64,000 nucleotides of DNA from Aestuariivirga sp. (lineage in GTDB: Bacteria > Pseudomonadota > Alphaproteobacteria > Rhizobiales > Aestuariivirgaceae), in contig NZ_JBGSOZ010000151.1 of assembly GCF_041738905.1 (NCBI RefSeq), positions 5,829 to 69,828 on the forward strand. Reading direction: 5' to 3'. Made by a program: the position numbers and the translations under genes. Shown here in pieces: positions 3,283 through 47,631 of this stretch (positions are counted from its first letter, which is position 1; the number at the start of each line of letters is the position of its first letter). The notes under the pieces were generated by a model. The model was not told where the DNA came from. It searched no databases and worked only from the letters and a program-made list of their open reading frames with translations.

Positions 3283-4598
3283 ATGCCTTCACACCCTCCG
3301 ACGCCCAGGCGAGGGCAATCGCTGAGATCAAGGACTGGTTCGTGAACCGCTCTCAACATCAGCAAGTGTGCCGGCTGTTTGGTTATGCCGGAAGTGGCAA
3401 AAGTACGGTGCTGCGCTTTGCGTTGGAGGAGCTTGGCCTCAGCACGTCCGTGTCCTCAAGGCATTGTGTGCCGGATGTGGTGACCTCCACCTTCACTGGC
3501 AAGGCGGCGCTCGTACTGCGGCGCAAGGGAACGCCAGCGCGCACGATCCACAGCCTGATCTACAGCGTGATCGAGGCGACCGAGGATGAGGTGGCAGCCG
3601 CCGCAGCGAAGATCGATGAGGAAAAGCAACAGGCACGCGGGCTCACTGGCTTCGAGAAGACGACAGTGGAGGCCGCTATCGAAGCGATGCGGCAGGCGCT
3701 GGCGCAGATGAAGCAGCCGCGCTTTACGCTGAATCCGCAGAGCGATGCGGCGCTGACGAAACTCATCGTTCTCGACGAGGTGTCGATGGTCGACGAGGAC
3801 ATGGCGCGCGACCTCATGAGCTTCAAGAAGCCGATCCTTGTCCTGGGCGATCCGGGCCAGCTGCCGCCGATCAAGGGTGAGGGAGCGTTCACCCGCGATG
3901 CGCCCGACGTCATGCTGACGGAAATCCACCGCCAGGCGGGCGAAAGCGCCATCATCCGACTCGCCACCATGGCGCGGCAGGGCGAGGCTATCGGCTTCGG
4001 GCAGTATGACGCCCATGTCGCCAAGATGCGCAAGATGGATGTGACGCCTGAGCAGGCATTGAGGGGAGGCCAGGTCATCTGCGGCCGCAATGCCACGCGG
4101 TTCGAACTGAACAATGCCATGCGCAGGGCAGCGGGATTCAGTGATGGCGGCACCCTGCCGTCCGGTTCCATGGAGAAGATCATCTGTCTCAAGAACCAGA
4201 ATGATTTCGGACTGATCAATGGCATGTTCATCACGCTGGAAGACATCGTCGACGAGGGCACGCACTACTTCTCGGCCCAGGCGCATGATGAGGATGGGCA
4301 GCCTGTCGGGCCGCTGCTTGATGCCGATGGCAGCCGCGGAAGGCTTCGCTTCTATAAGGGTCACTTCGAGGATCATCTGTCTTTTGATCCCCACCGCCAC
4401 GACTGCGACTGGAAGATCAAGCGGCAGCTGTCGGAGGCGACATATGGTTGGGCCATCACCTGCCACAAGGCGCAAGGCTCGCAATGGGAGAATGTCATCG
4501 TCTGGGACGATGGCCTGGGGCAGAGCGAGGCCGATCGGCGCCGCTGGCTCTATACCGCCATCACGCGTGCCGAGCGCGGGCTTGTGATACTGGCCTGA
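3279..4598 (+). CDS. RecD/Dda-like SF1B helicase
   Basis: GYAGSGKS, DEVSM, LGDPGQLPPI, EIHRQ, AITCHKAQGSQW, YTAITRA. Confidence 0.9.
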   Translation: MNAFTPSDAQARAIAEIKDWFVNRSQHQQVCRLFGYAGSGKSTVLRFALEELGLSTSVSSRHCVPDVVTSTFTGKAALVLRRKGTPARTIHSLIYSVIEATEDEVAAAAAKIDEEKQQARGLTGFEKTTVEAAIEAMRQALAQMKQPRFTLNPQSDAALTKLIVLDEVSMVDEDMARDLMSFKKPILVLGDPGQLPPIKGEGAFTRDAPDVMLTEIHRQAGESAIIRLATMARQGEAIGFGQYDAHVAKMRKMDVTPEQALRGGQVICGRNATRFELNNAMRRAAGFSDGGTLPSGSMEKIICLKNQNDFGLINGMFITLEDIVDEGTHYFSAQAHDEDGQPVGPLLDADGSRGRLRFYKGHFEDHLSFDPHRHDCDWKIKRQLSEATYGWAITCHKAQGSQWENVIVWDDGLGQSEADRRRWLYTAITRAERGLVILA

Positions 4599-8660: not shown

Positions 8661-9029
8661 ATGACAATCGCAAGGTCCACAATTCTGGTGGTTGAAGATG
8701 AGTCGCTGATCAGAATGAGCGCCGTTGACCTGACCATTTCAGCAGGTTTTCGGGCAGTCGAGGCCAAGAATGCCGATGAGGCAATCGGCATACTCGAAGC
8801 ACGGCACGACATTCACCTCGTGTTCACCGATGTCGACATGCCGGGCTCCATGGACGGGCTCAAGCTATGCCACCACATCAGAGACCGCTGGCCTCCCGTC
8901 AAACTACTAGTGGCCTCGGGTAAGACTGTTGTTGCCGAAAGCCAGCTCCCAGATGGGGCAATGTTCTTCTCTAAGCCGTACAGTAACACCTCGATTGTCG
9001 AAGCTATGACGCGGCTGCTTGCTGCTTGA
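8661..9029 (+). CDS. Single-domain response regulator
   Basis: ILVVEDE, FTDVDMPG, VASG, FFSKPY; no output domain. Confidence 0.9.
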   Translation: MTIARSTILVVEDESLIRMSAVDLTISAGFRAVEAKNADEAIGILEARHDIHLVFTDVDMPGSMDGLKLCHHIRDRWPPVKLLVASGKTVVAESQLPDGAMFFSKPYSNTSIVEAMTRLLAA

Positions 9030-9244
9030 GTGTCTTGCGACTGCAGTATGTCGCGACGGCGCTTGCTATGGCGCTGCAAGTAATGGCTTTCCGTGCAAGA
9101 GTTTTCCCACAAGGCCCTTCATGCGATGGATGCATGTTTTCATGCGGTGTCATGATCGTGTCCTAGCGAGGTATCCGTCTCGAGGCAGAGCTTCTATCGC
9201 GGCGTGACGAGCGCGCTGAAATTGCTTCTCCGGCCCCGCCATTT

Positions 9245-9507
9245 TGTCACCACCTCGGGTTCTGTCACCACCTCAGTTCTCAGGTGGTGACAGAAATAAT
9301 CGTGATAAATCAACGTTGTCACCACTGTCACCACCTGCACCACCAACTTCTTTTCCTTTTGCTATAGGAGTGTGTCCCCTGTTTTTTTCTTCCACATACG
9401 ATGTAAGGGAAAAAGGTGGTGACAGGTGGTGACAGTGGTGACAGCGTTGTTATTGCTTGGGGTTTTTTGTCACCACCTTGCGACGGAAGTGGTGACAGGT
9501 GGTGACA
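9245..9507. repeat. Array of 11 TGTCACCAC 9-mers in mirror arrangement; putative replication origin
   Basis: Forward copies at 9245, 9263, 9317, 9326, 9468; reverse copies within 9282-9292, 9414-9443 (three) and 9489-9507 (two); T/A-rich core 9349-9413. Confidence 0.75.
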
Positions 9508-32944: not shown

Positions 32945-33421
32945 ATGAAAAACTTCGGCATGAACCGCCGTACTTCAATCTGCAGTCTCATTGCCATCGC
33001 GGCGGGCGGTCTGTTTCCAACAGTGGGACGCGCCGCGGGAGACGCCTTGCCTCCCGTCAGGGCGTATCGCAATCCCGGTTGTGGCTGCTGTGAGAAATGG
33101 GCTGGCCTGATGAAGGAGGCAGGATTCGCAATCACAATGGAGGACGACAACGATCTGGCTGGCCGAAAGGAGAAACTCGGCGTTCCGGCCGAACTTTCAG
33201 GATGCCATACGGCTCTGATCGCCGGGTATGTCATCGAAGGTCATGTGCCGCCGAAGGACATTCTGCGGCTACTGGCCGAGAAGCCAGACGCCCTTGGTCT
33301 TGCTGTGCCTGGAATGCCAGTGGGTTCACCAGGAATGGAAGCTGCGGAAGAAGCAGACGCTTACGACGTAATCCAGTTTGCTCGGAATGGATCGCAACGA
33401 GTCTTCGCCCGATACACGTAA
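32945..33421 (+). CDS. DUF411 (CopG-like) metal-binding protein
   Basis: GCGCC, CHTA, IEGHVP, VPGMPVGSPGME. Confidence 0.9.
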   Translation: MKNFGMNRRTSICSLIAIAAGGLFPTVGRAAGDALPPVRAYRNPGCGCCEKWAGLMKEAGFAITMEDDNDLAGRKEKLGVPAELSGCHTALIAGYVIEGHVPPKDILRLLAEKPDALGLAVPGMPVGSPGMEAAEEADAYDVIQFARNGSQRVFARYT

Positions 33422-33447: not shown

Positions 33448-33867
33448 TCAGTGCTCGCCGCCGCAACGCTTGTGGTCGCTGAGCACCTCGATGACTCGGC
33501 AATGGCTCACACGGCCATGGCCGCACTCTTCGACCATGCGTTTCAATTCTTTGCGAAGAGCCTGAAGTTTCTTCAGTCGTAACTCGACTTGTTCGAGATG
33601 CGAACGGGCGATGATGTCGGCGGCGGAGCAACTCGTGTCCGGATTGTCCGACAAATGCAGCAATTCCCGGATTTCTTCAATGCCGAAGCCGAGTTCGCGG
33701 GCGTGACGGATGAACTTGAGGCGACGCGCGTCCTCCGGACCATAGAGCCGGTGGCCACCCTCGGAGCGTGCAAAAGGCCGGATCAGACCGATCTCCTCGT
33801 AATAGCGGATGGTTTGAACCTTTGTGGCCGCGATCACGGCGAGTTTACCGATAGCCATGCCAGCCAT
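33448..33867 (-). CDS. MerR-family metal regulator (ZntR/CadR/PbrR type)
   Basis: TIRYYEEIGL HTH; three spaced Cys (DTSC, EEC, SHC). Confidence 0.9.
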   Translation of the reverse strand: MAGMAIGKLAVIAATKVQTIRYYEEIGLIRPFARSEGGHRLYGPEDARRLKFIRHARELGFGIEEIRELLHLSDNPDTSCSAADIIARSHLEQVELRLKKLQALRKELKRMVEECGHGRVSHCRVIEVLSDHKRCGGEH

Positions 33868-33878
33868 GGAATTTCCTC

Positions 33879-33909
33879 TTGAATCTCCAGTGGCTGGAGA
33901 TTGTATCAA
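33879..33909 (+). promoter_or_regulatory. MerR-type promoter/operator
   Basis: TTGAAT-N19-TATCAA with perfect dyad AATCTCCAG-tgg-CTGGAGATT (33882-33902). Confidence 0.85.
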
Positions 33910-33973
33910 AGAATCAGCGACGCTCAAAGGGCGGCGGCTAGACAACGCCGTCATATGACAGGAACGGAATACC

Positions 33974-34621
33974 ATGAATCGAAGGCAATCCATTATTGCG
34001 CTGGGAGCAGCAGGTCTGATGGGGGCCAGTTTCGCCAGCCAACGCTCCTTTGCGGAGGAGGAAGCCGCCGAGGTCGCCAAGCGTCTGCTGGACGCTGCGT
34101 CCCCACTTGGAGATCGCTCGCTCGGCAAAGCTGACGCTCCCGTTGTGATGATTGAGTATGCCTCGGCGACGTGCCCGCATTGCGCCGAGTTCCACGAAAT
34201 GGTTCTGCCGCAAATCAAGTCCGAGTACATCGAGACCGGAAAGGTCCGCTTCATCTTTCGGGAATTCCCGCTGGATCAACTGGCGCTTGGCGCCTTTATG
34301 CTTACCCGATGCATCTCCGAGGACAAGTATTTCGCGACACTCGATCTCATGTTCCAGAAGCAGAAAACATGGGCGCAGGCCAAGAACCCAGCCGACGAAC
34401 TGTTCAAGGTCATGCAGTTGCCAGGCATGGACCAAGCGGGGTTTGAAGCTTGCGTGAAGCGTGAGGAACTTGCCAAGGCCATCGTTGAATCGTCAAAGAA
34501 AGCTGCAAAGGACTTCGCCATCAAGGGAACGCCAGCGATCTTCATCAATGGCCAGTTCATAGATGCACACGAGGACATGGCGTCGGTCAAGATCGCCTTG
34601 GACAAGGCCATTGGCCAGTAG
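33974..34621 (+). CDS. DsbA-family thiol-disulfide oxidoreductase
   Basis: Twin-Arg-like signal, [13 protein letters not shown]. Confidence 0.9.
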
Positions 34622-34655
34622 AGCGCCAACGAAACCAACAATTCGGAATTTGAAG

Positions 34656-35306
34656 ATGAAGCGAAGAGAATTATTGACCGGCGCGCTGGCCGCAATTGCC
34701 ACGGCATCATTGGGCGTTTCGGAAGCAGTGGCGGAGAAGTTCCCGATTTTCCGCGCCGAGATTCAGAAGGTTCCGCCCAAATATCGCAAGCGGACCGTGC
34801 GATTTCTGAGTGACTACCCGGTGGGCACCATCGTTGTCGATACGCGCAACAAGTTCCTGTATCTCGTTCAACCAGGTGGCAGGGCAATCCGCTATGGCAT
34901 CGGCGTCGGGCGGCAAGGCTTCTCGTGGTCGGGCGCTGCTGTGATCAAGCGCAAGGCCAAGTGGCCGACATGGACACCGCCTGCTGCCATGGTGGCGCGC
35001 GATGAGTTCGCAGCCCAGTGGGCGAACGGCATGCCCGGCGGCCCGAAAAACCCGCTCGGCGCAAGAGCACTTTATCTGTATCAGGGCAATGTCGATACAC
35101 TATATCGCATCCATGGAACGTTTGTCCCGTCGTCCATAGGCAAGGCAGTTTCGTCAGGATGCATTCGCATGATCAATGCCGATGTCGCGGACCTTTATGA
35201 ACGCGTTCCGGTGGGAACGGAGGTCGTCGTCCTGCAAGGCCGATCGCCGTTCGTAGCTGAAGATATGCCGCCTGCGAAGCGCAAGCGGAAGTTCCTGTTT
35301 GAATAG
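34656..35306 (+). CDS. L,D-transpeptidase (YkuD family)
   Basis: MKRRELL signal; YRIHGT...SSGCIRM. Confidence 0.9.
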
Positions 35307-35315
35307 GATCGACAT

Positions 35316-37496
35316 ATGACAACGACGGCCCGCTTCCGCGTGCAGGGCATGGATTGCCCCTCCTGCGTCAGCAAGATCGAGACGGCCGTCAAGCGTATCG
35401 CGGGCGTCGAGACCGCCAAGGTCGGCCTGCAATCGGAGACCCTCACGGTCGAAATGGCCGATGCGGCCAGGAGCGAGGCTGTGGAGAAGGCTGTGACCTC
35501 ACTGGGCTACAAGGTCGCCCGGCAGGCCACCGCCGTTGCACCGCCGCAATCCGCGAACGCCGTTGCCCACTCAGGCCATGACCACTCCGGGAATGCTCAC
35601 GACGAGCCCAGTTCCGAAGCCGGGCATTCCGATCACGGCGAGGCCATCGATGGCCCGTGGTGGCGGTCCTCCAAGGGCGTGTTGGTCATCATCACTGGCG
35701 CCATGACTGCTCTGGCCTATCTCGATCACTACATCCTTCCCTATGGCTCGAAATATGCCTTCCTCGCCGCCGCACTAGTTGGCACTGCCCCGGTCGCCAG
35801 GCGCGCCTTCATGGCGCTGCGCAACGGGTCGCTGTTCACCATCGAGATGCTGATGACCATCGCCGTCATAGGCGCCATTGCCATCGGCGCCACGGAGGAG
35901 GCAGCGATCGTCGTGTTCCTGTTTGCAGTGGGCGAGTTGCTCGAAGGGGTCGCGGCGGGCCGGGCGCGCTCCGGCATTCGTGCACTGGCGAAAATCGCGC
36001 CGCAGACCGCCATGGTGGAAACGCCGTCCGGCCTCGTCGAAACGCCCGTGGCGCAACTCGCCCTCGGCAGCATCGTCGTGGTGCGGCCGGGCGACCGCGT
36101 GCCGGCAGACGGCGTCATCGTTTCGGGCAATTCCGCGCTGGACGAATCCGCTCTTACCGGCGAGTCCATGCCGCGGTCCCGCGGCGAGGGCGACATGGTG
36201 CTGGCCGGCTCCATCAATGCCGAATCCGTACTGCGCGTGCGGGTGGACAAGCCGGCGGGCGACACGCTGATCGCTCGCGTCGTCCGCCTCGTGGAGGAGG
36301 CGGCGGACGCCAAGGCACCCTCCGAACGCTTCATAGAACGCTTTGCCCGCTGGTACATGCCGATGATCTGTGTTCTGGCGCTGGCCGTGGCGCTCGTTCC
36401 GCCGCTCCTCTGGCATGCGCCTTGGGACGTGTGGATCTATCCCGCGCTGACGCTGCTGCTGATCGCCTGTCCGTGCGCGCTGGTGATCTCGACACCTGCC
36501 TCCATAGCGTCGGCGCTTGCGGCTGGCGCGCGGCGCGGACTCCTCGTCAAGGGTGGCGGCGTACTGGAGGCCATCGGCAAGGTGAAGCACATCGCCTTCG
36601 ACAAGACCGGCACGCTGACGGCGGGCAAGCCCGTGGTCACCGACGTTGTTGCGCTGGGCGGGACTCAGGACGGTGACGTGCTGCGTATTGCTGCCGCCGT
36701 CGAGTCCCATTCATCGCACCCGCTGGCGGTGGCCATCGTGGCGGCCGCGAAGGAGAAGAACATCGCCTTCACGGCGGTCGACTCCGAAGTCCTTCCCGGC
36801 AAGGGTCTGAAGGGTGAGGTCGATGGCCGGACCATCACCATCGGCGCGCGCGGCAGGCTCAACGTCACGCGCAAGGATGTGCTCGCGCGGGCGTCCGAAC
36901 TCGAAGCCGAGGGAAAGAGCGTCTCCGTGCTGCTTGCGGGCGATCAGCCCATCGGACTGATCGCACTCCGCGACGAGCTGCGCGAGGACGCCATCGCCGG
37001 TGTGCGCGCGGTGAAGGCGCTGGGTCTGATCCCGATCATGCTGACAGGCGACAACCGCGCCAATGCGGAAGCCGTGGGCAGGATCCTCGGCATGGAGGTC
37101 AGGGCGGAGCTTCTGCCGGAAGACAAGCTCGCCGTCATCCGCGAGAAGAGTGCGGCAGGCGGCATCGCCAAGGTTGGCGACGGCGTCAACGACGCACCGG
37201 CACTTGCCGCCGCCACGGTGGGGATCGCCATGGGATCGGGCACTGACGTTGCACTCGAGGCTGCAGATGCCGCCGTCCTGAACAATCGCATCTCCGATGT
37301 CGCGGGCCTCGTGCGGCTGTCGCGCCAGACCACGGCCGTCATTCGTCAGAACGTGGCGGTTTCACTTGGCTTCAAGGTGTTGTTCCTCGTCACCACGATC
37401 GTCGGCCTCACCGGCCTGTGGATCGCCATTCTCGCTGACACCGGTGCCACGGTGCTCGTCACTCTGAATGCGCTACGCCTGCTTCGTTGGCGCTGA
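35316..37496 (+). CDS. zntA: P1B-2 Zn/Cd/Pb-exporting ATPase
   Basis: GMDCPSC, His-rich linker, CPC, DKTGT, HP, GDGVND, ADTGAT. Confidence 0.9.
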   Translation: MTTTARFRVQGMDCPSCVSKIETAVKRIAGVETAKVGLQSETLTVEMADAARSEAVEKAVTSLGYKVARQATAVAPPQSANAVAHSGHDHSGNAHDEPSSEAGHSDHGEAIDGPWWRSSKGVLVIITGAMTALAYLDHYILPYGSKYAFLAAALVGTAPVARRAFMALRNGSLFTIEMLMTIAVIGAIAIGATEEAAIVVFLFAVGELLEGVAAGRARSGIRALAKIAPQTAMVETPSGLVETPVAQLALGSIVVVRPGDRVPADGVIVSGNSALDESALTGESMPRSRGEGDMVLAGSINAESVLRVRVDKPAGDTLIARVVRLVEEAADAKAPSERFIERFARWYMPMICVLALAVALVPPLLWHAPWDVWIYPALTLLLIACPCALVISTPASIASALAAGARRGLLVKGGGVLEAIGKVKHIAFDKTGTLTAGKPVVTDVVALGGTQDGDVLRIAAAVESHSSHPLAVAIVAAAKEKNIAFTAVDSEVLPGKGLKGEVDGRTITIGARGRLNVTRKDVLARASELEAEGKSVSVLLAGDQPIGLIALRDELREDAIAGVRAVKALGLIPIMLTGDNRANAEAVGRILGMEVRAELLPEDKLAVIREKSAAGGIAKVGDGVNDAPALAAATVGIAMGSGTDVALEAADAAVLNNRISDVAGLVRLSRQTTAVIRQNVAVSLGFKVLFLVTTIVGLTGLWIAILADTGATVLVTLNALRLLRWR

Positions 37497-37516
37497 TGAC
37501 CACCAAGGAAGCAATC

Positions 37517-38020
37517 ATGAGTTTGGCCTTGCTGCGCGCTGCCGCAATCACTGCCTTCGCTCTTCTTGCGGGTACAGGCAACGTCCTGACAGCAGAGACG
37601 GGCGGTCCGTGGAAGCTTGGAGATATCGTGGTCGAGCAGGCCTGGGCCCGGTTGGCTCCGGGCGGAGCACGAACGGGTGCCGTCTATCTCACCGTTCACA
37701 ACAAGTCCGGCCAGGACGATCTGTTGCTCGCTGTCGACAGCCCCGTTGCAAAATCGACCGCAGTTCAGGTGACCATCGTTGAAAACGATGTTGCCAGGAT
37801 GGAGCCGCTGCCCGCAGGGGTGAACCTCCCGAGCCACGGGGAAGTGGTGATGCGCCCGGGCGGCATGCACATCATGATGACGGGTGTATCCGCGGACATG
37901 AAGGTTGGCAGCCTGCTGCCGGTCAAGATGGTGTTCCGGGACGCAGGCTCGCTGGACTTCGAGGTTCCGGTGGTTCCGCTGGGTGCCTTTGATCCCGCCG
38001 AACAGCACCTGAAGCACTGA
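37517..38020 (+). CDS. PCu(A)C copper chaperone-like protein
   Basis: AWAR...GAVYLT, PGGMHIM; first His ligand appears absent. Confidence 0.8.
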   Translation: MSLALLRAAAITAFALLAGTGNVLTAETGGPWKLGDIVVEQAWARLAPGGARTGAVYLTVHNKSGQDDLLLAVDSPVAKSTAVQVTIVENDVARMEPLPAGVNLPSHGEVVMRPGGMHIMMTGVSADMKVGSLLPVKMVFRDAGSLDFEVPVVPLGAFDPAEQHLKH

Positions 38021-38022
38021 GT

Positions 38023-38607
38023 ATGGTTCGCCGGTTCTGGATACATGGAGTAGCTGCCGTACTGGCGTTGTGCGCCGGTGTCGCCATTGTTGTTTATCTC
38101 GAGACCGGGCGGATGGAAGGCCCCGCCATTGAGATCGGGGGAGCCTTTACAATGATGGATTAGGACGGGCAAGTCATCACTCAGCAGGACCTCGATCAGA
38201 CGGCGGTTGCGCTGTTCGCAGGGTTCACGCACTGCCCTGACGTTTGTCCGACGACATTGCTGCGGCTGTCGAACCTCCTGGAACAGCTTGGCGGCGATGC
38301 GGACAAGGTTCGCGTCGTCCTCGTTTCGGTCGATCCCGAGCGTGACACGCCACAAGTCCTCAAGTCCTACCTGGAGGCTTTCGAAGGTGACTTCACCGGC
38401 ATGACCGGCACGCCCGAACAGCTGAAGGCCTTCGCAAAGGCGTACAGGCTCTTCTACGAGAAATCCGGCACCGGCAGTGATTATACCATGAACCACACGG
38501 CGGGCGTCTTTCTCTTCAAGAAGGGAGGAGCCTTCCAGGGCACGCTCGACCAGCATGAGCCGGATGATACGGCCTTGCGCAAATTGAAGATGTTAACAGG
38601 AGCCTGA
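38023..38607 (+). pseudogene. SCO-family copper protein interrupted by an in-frame TAG
   Basis: Same frame throughout; TAG at 38161-63; CPDVC and MNHTA intact downstream. Confidence 0.85.
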
Positions 38608-38611
38608 CCCC

Positions 38612-39073
38612 ATGATCCTCTCGCGCAGAACAACTCTTCTGTTACCGCTCCTTCTGTTTATGAACCGTACCGCGGAAGCCGGGGCACGGCGCCTCGAGGT
38701 AATGTCCACCAATGGATGCGGTTGCTGCGTTGCCTGGGTCAAGCATCTGGAAGCGGAGGGCTACACGGCGACCGTGACCAACCTGCCGATGGCAGACCTG
38801 GTCCTTAAGAAGATGGCGGCCGGATTGAGGCCTGAACTCTATTCCTGCCATACGGCCATGATCGACGGTTATGTCATCGAGGGTCATGTGCCAGTCCGTG
38901 ACATCAACCAACTCCTGCGCGACCGTCCCGATGCAATTGGTCTCACCGTGCCGGGCATGCCAACGGGATCTCCCGGCATGGGTGAGCCAGACCCCTCTAA
39001 CCCCTATGAGGTGCTGCTGGTGCGTCGCGACGGAACGACGGATGTGTTCTCTCGTCAACCTCAGGCAGGCTAG
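38612..39073 (+). CDS. Second DUF411 protein
   Basis: GCGCC, SCHTA, IEGHVP, VPGMPTGSPGM. Confidence 0.9.
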   Translation: MILSRRTTLLLPLLLFMNRTAEAGARRLEVMSTNGCGCCVAWVKHLEAEGYTATVTNLPMADLVLKKMAAGLRPELYSCHTAMIDGYVIEGHVPVRDINQLLRDRPDAIGLTVPGMPTGSPGMGEPDPSNPYEVLLVRRDGTTDVFSRQPQAG

Positions 39074-39633
39074 CGTTTCGAGCTGCTGTTGTCTGCTTGA
39101 ACTACTCGCTGGCGGTGCCGTCGGGGGCAGGCTGCAGCGGCGATGATGATGATCGGGAACGGCACGGTGAAGCAGTAGAGCGCTGTAAACGCGAGTGCGG
39201 CAATCCACCAGTCAACTCGCTTCTTGAGAGCGCGTTTTGCGACGCACAGCAGTGCTTCAATGACGATCGCGAGGATGGCTGCCTTGATGCCGTGGAAGAT
39301 GGCGTCTACGACCGGAGGCCTCCCAAAGGCGGCACAGAGCATAGACAAGACAAGTACGACGAGCGCGCCTGGCAGGACGAACAGCAGGCCCGCCGCCAGA
39401 CCGCCTTCCACGCCGTGCAATCGCCAGCCGGAGTAGGTGACGAGCTGCATTGCCTCCGGACCGGGGAGCAGCATGCAGAAGTTGAGAGCAGACAGCTATT
39501 CATTCTCCGTGAGCCATTGACGTTCATCGACGAACTCGCGGTGCATGAGCGCGATTTGCCCCGCCGGTCCACCGAACGACAGGCAGCCAATCCGTGCCCA
39601 GACCTTCACGGAATCACGGAAAGATGCTGTCAC
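39070..39633 (-). pseudogene. chrA: Chromate transporter ChrA fragment
   Basis: SFGGPAGQIALMH, LLPGPEA; in-frame TAG at 39498-96; C-terminal half missing. Confidence 0.85.
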
Positions 39634-47544: not shown

Positions 47545-47568
47545 TTGACCTTCCCAGCGTGGTAAGGT
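47545..47568 (+). promoter_or_regulatory. CueR-type operator/promoter
   Basis: TTGACC overlapping ACCTTCC-N7-GTAAGGT (one mismatch to the CueR consensus). Confidence 0.75.
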
Positions 47569-47631
47569 GCAGAAGCCTTGTCTTGCGGTAGGTCAAAGTT
47601 CCGCCGCACGAAATGCATAAAACTAGGTCCA

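Follow-up and report, generated by a model that had tools for sequence, protein, structure and literature searches.

Genes for a DsbA-Like Protein and an L,D-Transpeptidase in a Predicted CadR/PbrR-Type MerR Operon of an Aestuariivirga Metal-Resistance Island

Introduction

The closest described systems to the operon considered here are the CadR-cadA, ZntR-zntA and PbrR-pbrA divergons of P. putida, E. coli and the pbr locus of C. metallidurans. These combine a three-cysteine sensor of the MerR family with a divergent promoter in which the operator dyad occupies a 19- or 20-bp spacer, as is textbook knowledge for CadR/PbrR divergons (PMC1526738), and a P1B-2 ATPase is the main effector. A likewise arranged unit is found at positions 33448 to 39073 of a 64,000-nucleotide stretch of DNA from Aestuariivirga sp. 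(assembly GCF_041738905.1, contig NZ_JBGSOZ010000151.1), which is referred to as the window. Unlike the described divergons, it has genes for a DsbA-like thiol:disulfide oxidoreductase (dsbA-like) and a YkuD L,D-transpeptidase (gene ldt, protein Ldt) between the operator and the pump, and it has a PCuAC-sco-DUF411 tail. None of the pbr set (pbrT, the pbrB phosphatase, the pbrC signal peptidase II and pbrD) is in the window's operon, and neither lspA nor a phosphatase gene was found in the window. A likeness to pbr is seen only in relatives of the operon, in which lspA (PbrC-like) follows the pump and bacA (of PbrB-like function) is nearby.

A second published relative is the 'MTGC' cluster of Brucella anthropi ATCC 49188, also reported in other Alphaproteobacteria, in which a CadR/PbrR-like regulator accompanies ZntA-CzcD-PCuAC-Sco-CcdA-LspA (PMC13707694). 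It is known from genome comparison alone. Like the unit in the window, it is an alphaproteobacterial island unit with a CadR-like regulator and ZntA accompanied by PCuAC and Sco, so that a copper-chaperone tail behind a Zn/Cd/Pb pump is not new. CcdA and LspA are shared with relatives of the window's operon; ccdA was not found in the window, and CzcD is absent from it. The Brucella cluster differs in having neither dsbA nor ldt, and its Dsb genes are in a separate island cluster. The same study equates DUF411 with CopG of P. aeruginosa (PMC13707694).

The E. coli Cpx regulon is similar in another way, in that a single stress signal raises a disulfide oxidase together with an L,D-transpeptidase and the envelope is kept intact. 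The dsbA gene is a Cpx member, and Cpx is induced by copper. Cpx is a two-component system sensing envelope damage and its genes are scattered, whereas here the sensor would be a cytoplasmic metal sensor in control of one operon that includes the pump. The L,D-transpeptidase of the Cpx envelope-stress regulon is LdtD (PMC12729407). The Scs (suppressor of copper sensitivity) and DsbC/DsbG proteins are alike in being periplasmic thioredoxin-fold proteins that shield the envelope from metal-catalysed thiol damage. DsbG guards the catalytic cysteines of Ldts. These proteins work as reductases or isomerases supplied by DsbD or ScsB, whereas the protein in the window is closest to alpha-DsbA1 and carries CPHC, the motif of oxidases. 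Two effects of metals bear on the same enzymes: dsbA mutants of E. coli, B. cepacia and P. putida are sensitive to Cd and Zn (PMC12041740), and L,D-transpeptidases are inhibited by copper, according to the passages of PMC8224329 and PMC12729407 that cite Peters et al. 2018 (PMC6196517).

A preliminary description of this DNA called the combination an unusual resistance strategy. With the dsbA phenotypes, the Cpx control of LdtD and the Brucella cluster on record (PMC12041740, PMC12729407, PMC13707694), it is less unusual than that. The new part is the presence of dsbA and, above all, ldt within such an operon. Literature searches pairing YkuD, ErfK or LD-transpeptidase with MerR, zntA, cadA or copper-resistance operons gave no specific result, and no publication was found that places an L,D-transpeptidase, or dsbA plus ldt, in such a metal operon.

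The Operon and Its Control Region

The preliminary description listed six genes spaced by 2 to 34 nt behind a MerR-type promoter, and with Pfam and NCBIfam all of these elements were found where it had placed them. The merR-family gene (33448-33870, minus strand) encodes a CadR/PbrR-like protein of 140 aa with the Pfam domains MerR_1, MerR and MerR-DNA-bind. Facing away from it on the plus strand are dsbA-like (33974-34621; 215 aa; Thioredoxin_4, PF13462, 6e-43, and DSBA, PF01323), ldt (34656-35306; 216 aa; PF03734, 4e-22), a gene assigned by NCBIfam and motifs to a P1B-2 (Zn/Cd/Pb-type) P-type ATPase with an N-terminal HMA domain (35316-37496), the gene of a PCuAC periplasmic copper chaperone (37517-38020; PF04314, 2e-28), sco (SCO1/SenC; 38023-38607) and the gene of a DUF411 (CopG-type) periplasmic protein (38612-39073; PF04214). 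The gaps from dsbA-like to DUF411 are, in order, 34, 9, 20, 2 and 4 nt, and no convincing terminator was found inside the six-gene unit. The gene identities given earlier hold with the exception of sco, which has an in-frame TAG and is a pseudogene. By its sequence this is a predicted CadR/PbrR-type MerR regulon unit in a metal-resistance island.

The 103 bp between merR and dsbA-like carry the promoter and operator. Read from the sequence, the plus-strand promoter has the -35 hexamer TTGAAT (33879-33884) and the -10 hexamer TATCAA (33904-33909) exactly 19 bp apart. The operator is a 9-3-9 dyad, AATCTCCAG-TGG-CTGGAGATT (33882-33902), whose 9-nt arms are 100% complementary, so the perfect dyad in a 19-bp spacer stands as first described. 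A consensus scan places merR's own promoter on the minus strand, as a sigma-70-like TTGAGC-16-TACAAT (33900-33927) overlapping the operator dyad. This is the classical layout of a MerR divergon. A degenerate form of the operator pattern has one match in the 64 kb, against 0.26 expected by chance. Each of the 14 related loci examined (loci are given L numbers below) has TTGAAn-19 bp-TAnnnn around a CTCYAG-N3-CTRGAG dyad, and between some of them the two arms have changed as a pair: CTCCAG/CTGGAG in the window is CTCTAG/CTAGAG in L006.

Locus L006 also has an inverted ccdA between dsbA and ldt, and directly ahead of its ldt-ATPase pair there is a second full copy of the promoter-operator. This second copy is the strongest in silico sign that the sensor may control both dsbA and ldt. 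The two copies lie at 2634-2664, before dsbA, and at 4187-4217, before ldt-ATPase, and ccdA diverges from the second as merR diverges from the first. The view that a MerR-type promoter heads the dsbA-like gene, ldt and the Zn/Cd/Pb pump as one unit fits the layout of the genes, this duplication, the core shared by about 30 loci and, in the first Ldt tree, a clade that lies only in metal loci.

The regulator shows the features of MerR sensors, namely the winged helix-turn-helix and dimerisation helix, three cysteine positions and a dyad in a 19-20 bp spacer. The solved structures nearest to it are PbrR (5gpe) and CadR (6jgv). The cysteine of its 'DTSC' motif aligns with Cys78 of PbrR and Cys77 of CadR, where CueR has a serine, and its C-x7-C loop aligns with the loop cysteines of 5gpe and 6jgv; aligning it to CueR requires a gap at that same position. 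In 13 orthologues of the regulator the three cysteines are all conserved, together with a histidine of the loop and a DH.HC tail. The NCBIfam scores are 113 bits for ZntR (PRK09514, cut-off 143), 106 for CueR and 105 for CadR-PbrR. Since it is below every equivalog cut-off, the regulator would belong to a separate CadR/PbrR-like subfamily, and its exact metal is not assignable from sequence. It is a predicted CadR/PbrR-like divalent-metal sensor, and the inducers to be expected from that are Cd, Pb and Zn rather than Cu.

A CueR identity was considered and rejected on account of the ligand cysteine and of a separate CueR-type box elsewhere in the window. That box, TTGACC-TTCCCAGCGTGGTAAGGTG (47545-47575), has the dyad ACCTTCCCA/TGGTAAGGT with one mismatch and is upstream of a multicopper oxidase gene. 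Its half-sites are unlike those at 33882, and the island thus contains two distinct MerR operators.

The Effector Proteins

The ATPase translation contains DKTGT, a membrane CPC, N-x7-K and D-x-G-x7-N, an HMA motif GMDCPSC and a His-rich stretch; N-x7-K, D-x-G-x7-N and the like are motifs that we take to be P1B-2 signatures under Arguello's classification. The TIGR01512 score is 517 bits (cut-off 313), and the Cu-type model TIGR01511 is just below its cut-off. The ZntA equivalog models score well under their thresholds (PRK11033, 778 bits vs. 1005; NF033775, 701 bits vs. 1240). The protein is by these scores and motifs a predicted member of the P1B-2 subfamily and not an orthologue of E. coli ZntA.

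The DsbA-like protein has a CPHC active site, a second cysteine pair and an RR-containing signal peptide (MNRRQSII...; 33974-34060). The nearest structure is Wolbachia alpha-DsbA1 (3f4r), to which both CPHC and the 'GTP' (cis-Pro) loop align, and SATCPHC is conserved among the orthologues. The features of a DsbA-type fold are all present: a thioredoxin fold with helical insert, CxxC, a cis-Pro loop and an export signal. Ldt has the catalytic His153 and Cys170, in the YkuD pattern of a catalytic histidine and an SxGC(I/V)R cysteine, and an RR-containing signal peptide of its own (MKRRELLTG...; 34656-34735). Its HGT...SSGCIRM aligns to the structures 6v45 and 4lzh, and the match to the homologue 6v45 at E = 5e-51 fixes the fold. 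Both signal peptides are twin-arginine-like. We dropped Tat export as a trait specific to the operon because Ldt paralogues beyond the clade of the operon Ldt commonly have signal peptides of the RR type as well.

Conservation in Other Genomes and Metagenomes

A one-genome-per-species scan with Ldt gave 80 loci. Every scanned genome locus with at least about 68% Ldt identity shares merR divergent from dsbA-ldt-ATPase, with or without PCuAC-sco. The genome loci with this core are L001, L002, L003, L005, L006 and L016, all uncultured and mostly Aestuariivirga or other Hyphomicrobiales. Decayed variants are found in L004 and L007, likewise uncultured. In L007 the ATPase is reduced to 264 aa, still in frame (8670-9464), with the HMA domain joined to the C-terminal part; L004 (5-1014) is without the pump, and one of its DsbA-like copies reads SATSRRC and has lost the active site. 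Searches with the DsbA-like and Ldt proteins found homologues at 58-75% identity in six metagenome loci (L081, L083, L085, L091, L092 and L094) with the same core amid unrelated flanks. In a further metagenome scan, dsbA is directly upstream of ldt in 15 loci, with the ATPase directly downstream in 10 and PCuAC-sco in place of the ATPase in about 3. Altogether, about 30 distinct loci from genomes and metagenomes of Hyphomicrobiales-type bacteria have the core with the same operator. The gene order in the preliminary description is conserved to this extent. The tail differs from locus to locus: PCuAC, sco and DUF411 are present in some and missing in others, lspA is often found behind the pump, and ccdA is a further variable member, with a ccdA/DsbD-type gene inserted beside dsbA in L002 and L006.

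Partial forms of the core also exist. L088 has merR, dsbA and the pump without ldt, and the relatives L089 and L090 have dsbA alone at the same chromosomal site. A multicopper oxidase-ldt pair without dsbA is found in L011 and L117. Each of dsbA and ldt is thus tied to metal loci on its own.

Some further features recur around the operon. Genes for Peptidase_C93 (a transglutaminase-like cysteine peptidase), BacA (undecaprenyl-diphosphatase) and LspA are repeatedly beside it (L081, L083, L092/L093 and L095); the last two are the ones that recall PbrB and PbrC of the lead-resistance operon. L111 and L113 are back-to-back paralogous operons of a single metagenome contig, VFQT010001724.1; only one of them includes the ATPase, the other being merR-dsbA-ldt-PCuAC-sco-DUF411.

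A looser parallel is found on plasmids of Labrenzia sp. THAF35 and Acuticoccus sp. MNP-M23. These encode a MerR of the same type (PCG..., EC.GGR..DCRV, DHSEC), and 19-bp spacers with a like operator precede both a heavy-metal ATPase gene and either dsbB-thioredoxin-PCuAC or sco-dsbB-thioredoxin. Among the neighbouring genes are Ldt genes and those of a CDF transporter, a peptidoglycan-binding protein and an M23 peptidase. The thioredoxin-domain proteins beside DsbB were considered as orthologues of the DsbA-like protein and rejected, being only ~25% identical; they are analogues. Since they are distant relatives, the placing of a disulfide system and cell-wall enzymes beside divalent-metal efflux recurs by analogy. 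Just before two Ldt genes on the Labrenzia plasmid (L095, 6308-6847) there is an unannotated open reading frame with a hydrophobic N-terminus, several cysteines and the end ...EDRPPRIY.

Lineage of the L,D-Transpeptidase

In a maximum-likelihood tree of 87 Ldt sequences, the operon Ldt falls within a clade of 14 (SH-aLRT 96). In this first tree, 10 rows of the clade are from ZntA-type operons, 4 from copper clusters and none from elsewhere, and the 69 rows in other contexts are all outside it. The copper-cluster rows are L009 and L011, in which ldt comes directly after a multicopper oxidase gene, L008, in which it is beside CsoR and a CopA-type ATPase, and the pump-less L004. The later metagenome scan added exceptions, which are weighed below, and the confinement of the clade to metal loci is not absolute. 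After the catalytic histidine the clade reads HGTF(V/A)PSSIG, compared to mostly HGTN(E/Q)PW(S/T)IG in other Ldts. The catalytic domain usually has one histidine in the clade versus a median of two, a difference for which a rank test is only indicative, the rows being related.

It is conceivable, though doubtful, that the operon Ldt belongs to an intrinsically metal-tolerant lineage marked by HGTF(V/A)PSSIG and the usually single histidine of the catalytic domain, and that Hyphomicrobiales swap a clade Ldt in, under a metal sensor, when thiophilic metals disable the ordinary cross-linking enzymes. If so, it would be a case of metal resistance by isoenzyme replacement acting on the cell wall. 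The clade-specific active-site motif is a concrete target for mutagenesis.

Proposed Mechanism and Alternatives

The reading that we find best is that metal induces a supply of thiol-dependent envelope enzymes together with the pump, and by what the genes and their order suggest we would put its chances near one half. Rising cytoplasmic Cd(II), Pb(II) or Zn(II) would cause the metal-bound MerR dimer to untwist the promoter and turn on the whole unit. The ATPase would export the metal to the periplasm, where it would put more load on proteins that need free or transiently free thiols. The co-induced putative DsbA paralogue, with its CPHC site, would shut cysteine pairs fast, ahead of their capture by thiophilic metal. 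The co-induced putative Ldt paralogue, reliant on one catalytic cysteine, would sustain 3-3 cross-linking, outer-membrane-protein tethering or both, and the PCuAC/Sco/CopG tail would guard the assembly of copper sites and periplasmic copper handling. L,D-transpeptidases are thought to build much of the wall in Hyphomicrobiales.

The usual account of metal resistance is one of efflux, sequestration and redox change. In this operon, disulfide formation and peptidoglycan cross-linking appear to be wired directly to a metal sensor in the cytoplasm. If the proposed supply of thiol enzymes is true, pumping metal into the periplasm is costly, and cells meet the cost with additional or specialised copies of such enzymes. 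The supply would then also be the first natural counter to the inhibition of L,D-transpeptidases that metal is known to cause, of most weight in Hyphomicrobiales. The idea is directly testable, since cultured Labrenzia/Roseibium and Acuticoccus strains hold the analogous plasmid units.

Several observations weigh against this proposal. The copper-protein tail is odd beside a Cd/Pb/Zn sensor. Inhibition of Ldts is on record for Cu, whereas for Cd, Zn and Pb it is an assumption. No DsbB homologue was found in the window or in those related loci that were searched, and the adjacency of ccdA to dsbA in L002 and L006 suggests that in at least some relatives the role may be to reduce and not to oxidise. 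The -10 hexamer is weak and across loci only its first two bases, TA, are conserved. About three close relatives of Ldt (L098, L105 and L106; 67-71% identity) are outside metal loci. Finally, the sole RNA match, in a sediment metatranscriptome, is a 247-nt contig over ldt (34882-35128) with three differences; a near-identical ldt is transcribed somewhere, and the contig is silent on co-transcription.

There are other ways to account for the same gene set. Ldt could be induced to add 3-3 cross-links or outer-membrane tethering, as LdtD is under Cpx, with DsbA aiding general folding and no need for the resident enzymes to be poisoned. Passages of PMC12729407 and PMC6428754 describe LdtD as Cpx-regulated and required on outer-membrane damage. 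The M23 peptidase, the peptidoglycan-binding protein and a YcbB-like Ldt beside the metal transporters on the Labrenzia and Acuticoccus plasmids point in this direction, as do the recurrent Peptidase_C93, BacA and LspA genes. We nevertheless regard such reinforcement as unlikely; it leaves unexplained both the clade-specific active-site motif with fewer histidines and the fact that nearly all the tail genes encode proteins with cysteine or metal sites. A closer coupling of the two enzymes is imaginable, in which the DsbA-like protein is not a general oxidase and uses electrons from CcdA to keep the catalytic cysteine of Ldt reduced and metal-free, in the way of DsbG with E. coli LdtA, LdtB and LdtE, a precedent reportedly set out by Depuydt and co-workers in 2009. 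The adjacency of dsbA and ldt in ~30 loci would suit this well, and so would the ccdA/DsbD-type gene beside dsbA in L002 and L006 and a DsbD_TM gene and thioredoxin near the operon in L094. However, all intact orthologues have the CPHC oxidase motif, the nearest structures are DsbA-type monomers and not DsbC/DsbG dimers, the window has no ccdA, and the partners also occur apart, as dsbA-ATPase without ldt in L088 and as ldt without dsbA in copper clusters. These points make the coupling rather improbable.

The module may instead be centred on copper, with a regulator that responds also or mainly to copper, a DsbA-like protein that matures or recycles the cysteine sites of Sco and CopG, an Ldt that counters copper inhibition and an ATPase that is a later passenger. 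PCuAC, Sco and DUF411 are indeed copper proteins, copper is the metal shown to inhibit Ldts, and sister Ldts follow multicopper oxidases in CopA/CsoR clusters; moreover, variants without the ATPase retain merR-dsbA-ldt-PCuAC-sco-DUF411 (L004, L007, L108 and L111). We judge this improbable as well, because the regulator has the cysteine at position 77/79 that marks divalent-metal sensors and is serine in CueR, the ATPase is P1B-2 and not of the Cu type, and the core occurs without any copper gene in L085 and L003. In L007, one of the variants just named, the internally deleted ATPase remnant is still there, so the pump is ancestral in that locus. Lastly, dsbA and ldt might have no functional link to the pump and merely co-travel with it on a mobile island. 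The island is rearranged and contains pseudogenes and fragments (the stop in sco, a chrA fragment and, in relatives, the ATPase remnants). Against this, order and tight spacing persist among unrelated flanks and at Ldt identities as low as 67%, L006 has a second operator ahead of ldt, and the Ldt clade is almost confined to metal loci, which together make mere co-travel very hard to believe.

Surroundings of the Operon and the sco Pseudogene

As a whole the window is a metal-resistance island; it derives from a hot-spring metagenome and a Hyphomicrobiales-like bacterium. Directly upstream of the unit are a cusB/cusA-like pair and a second DUF411 gene (32945-33421, plus strand, by Pfam), which is 3' of cusA and just ahead of the merR stop. 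This DUF411-merR adjacency is repeated in L001, L006 and L088. Further downstream in the window are a two-component system, a second RND pair and the multicopper oxidase. A megablast of the operon against plasmids gave short ATPase matches only.

The in-frame TAG of sco, seen in the translation, is codon 47 (38161-38163), and the Pfam match to SCO1/SenC is on the portion past the stop. The two closest relatives have CAG at this codon, and others have CAC, CAT or CGA. The identical window sequence, TAG included, is in contigs from four separately assembled hot-spring metagenome runs, which shows the stop to be genuine in that population and sco to be a pseudogene. The PCuAC and DUF411 genes, which flank the inactivated sco, remain intact.

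The next gene after the unit, on the minus strand and convergent with DUF411, is a fragment of a chromate transporter. This fragment of 134 aa meets the DUF411 gene both in the window (39070-39474) and in L094 (11431-11970). Since the two loci have it in common despite an Ldt identity of 75%, this boundary of the block is old.

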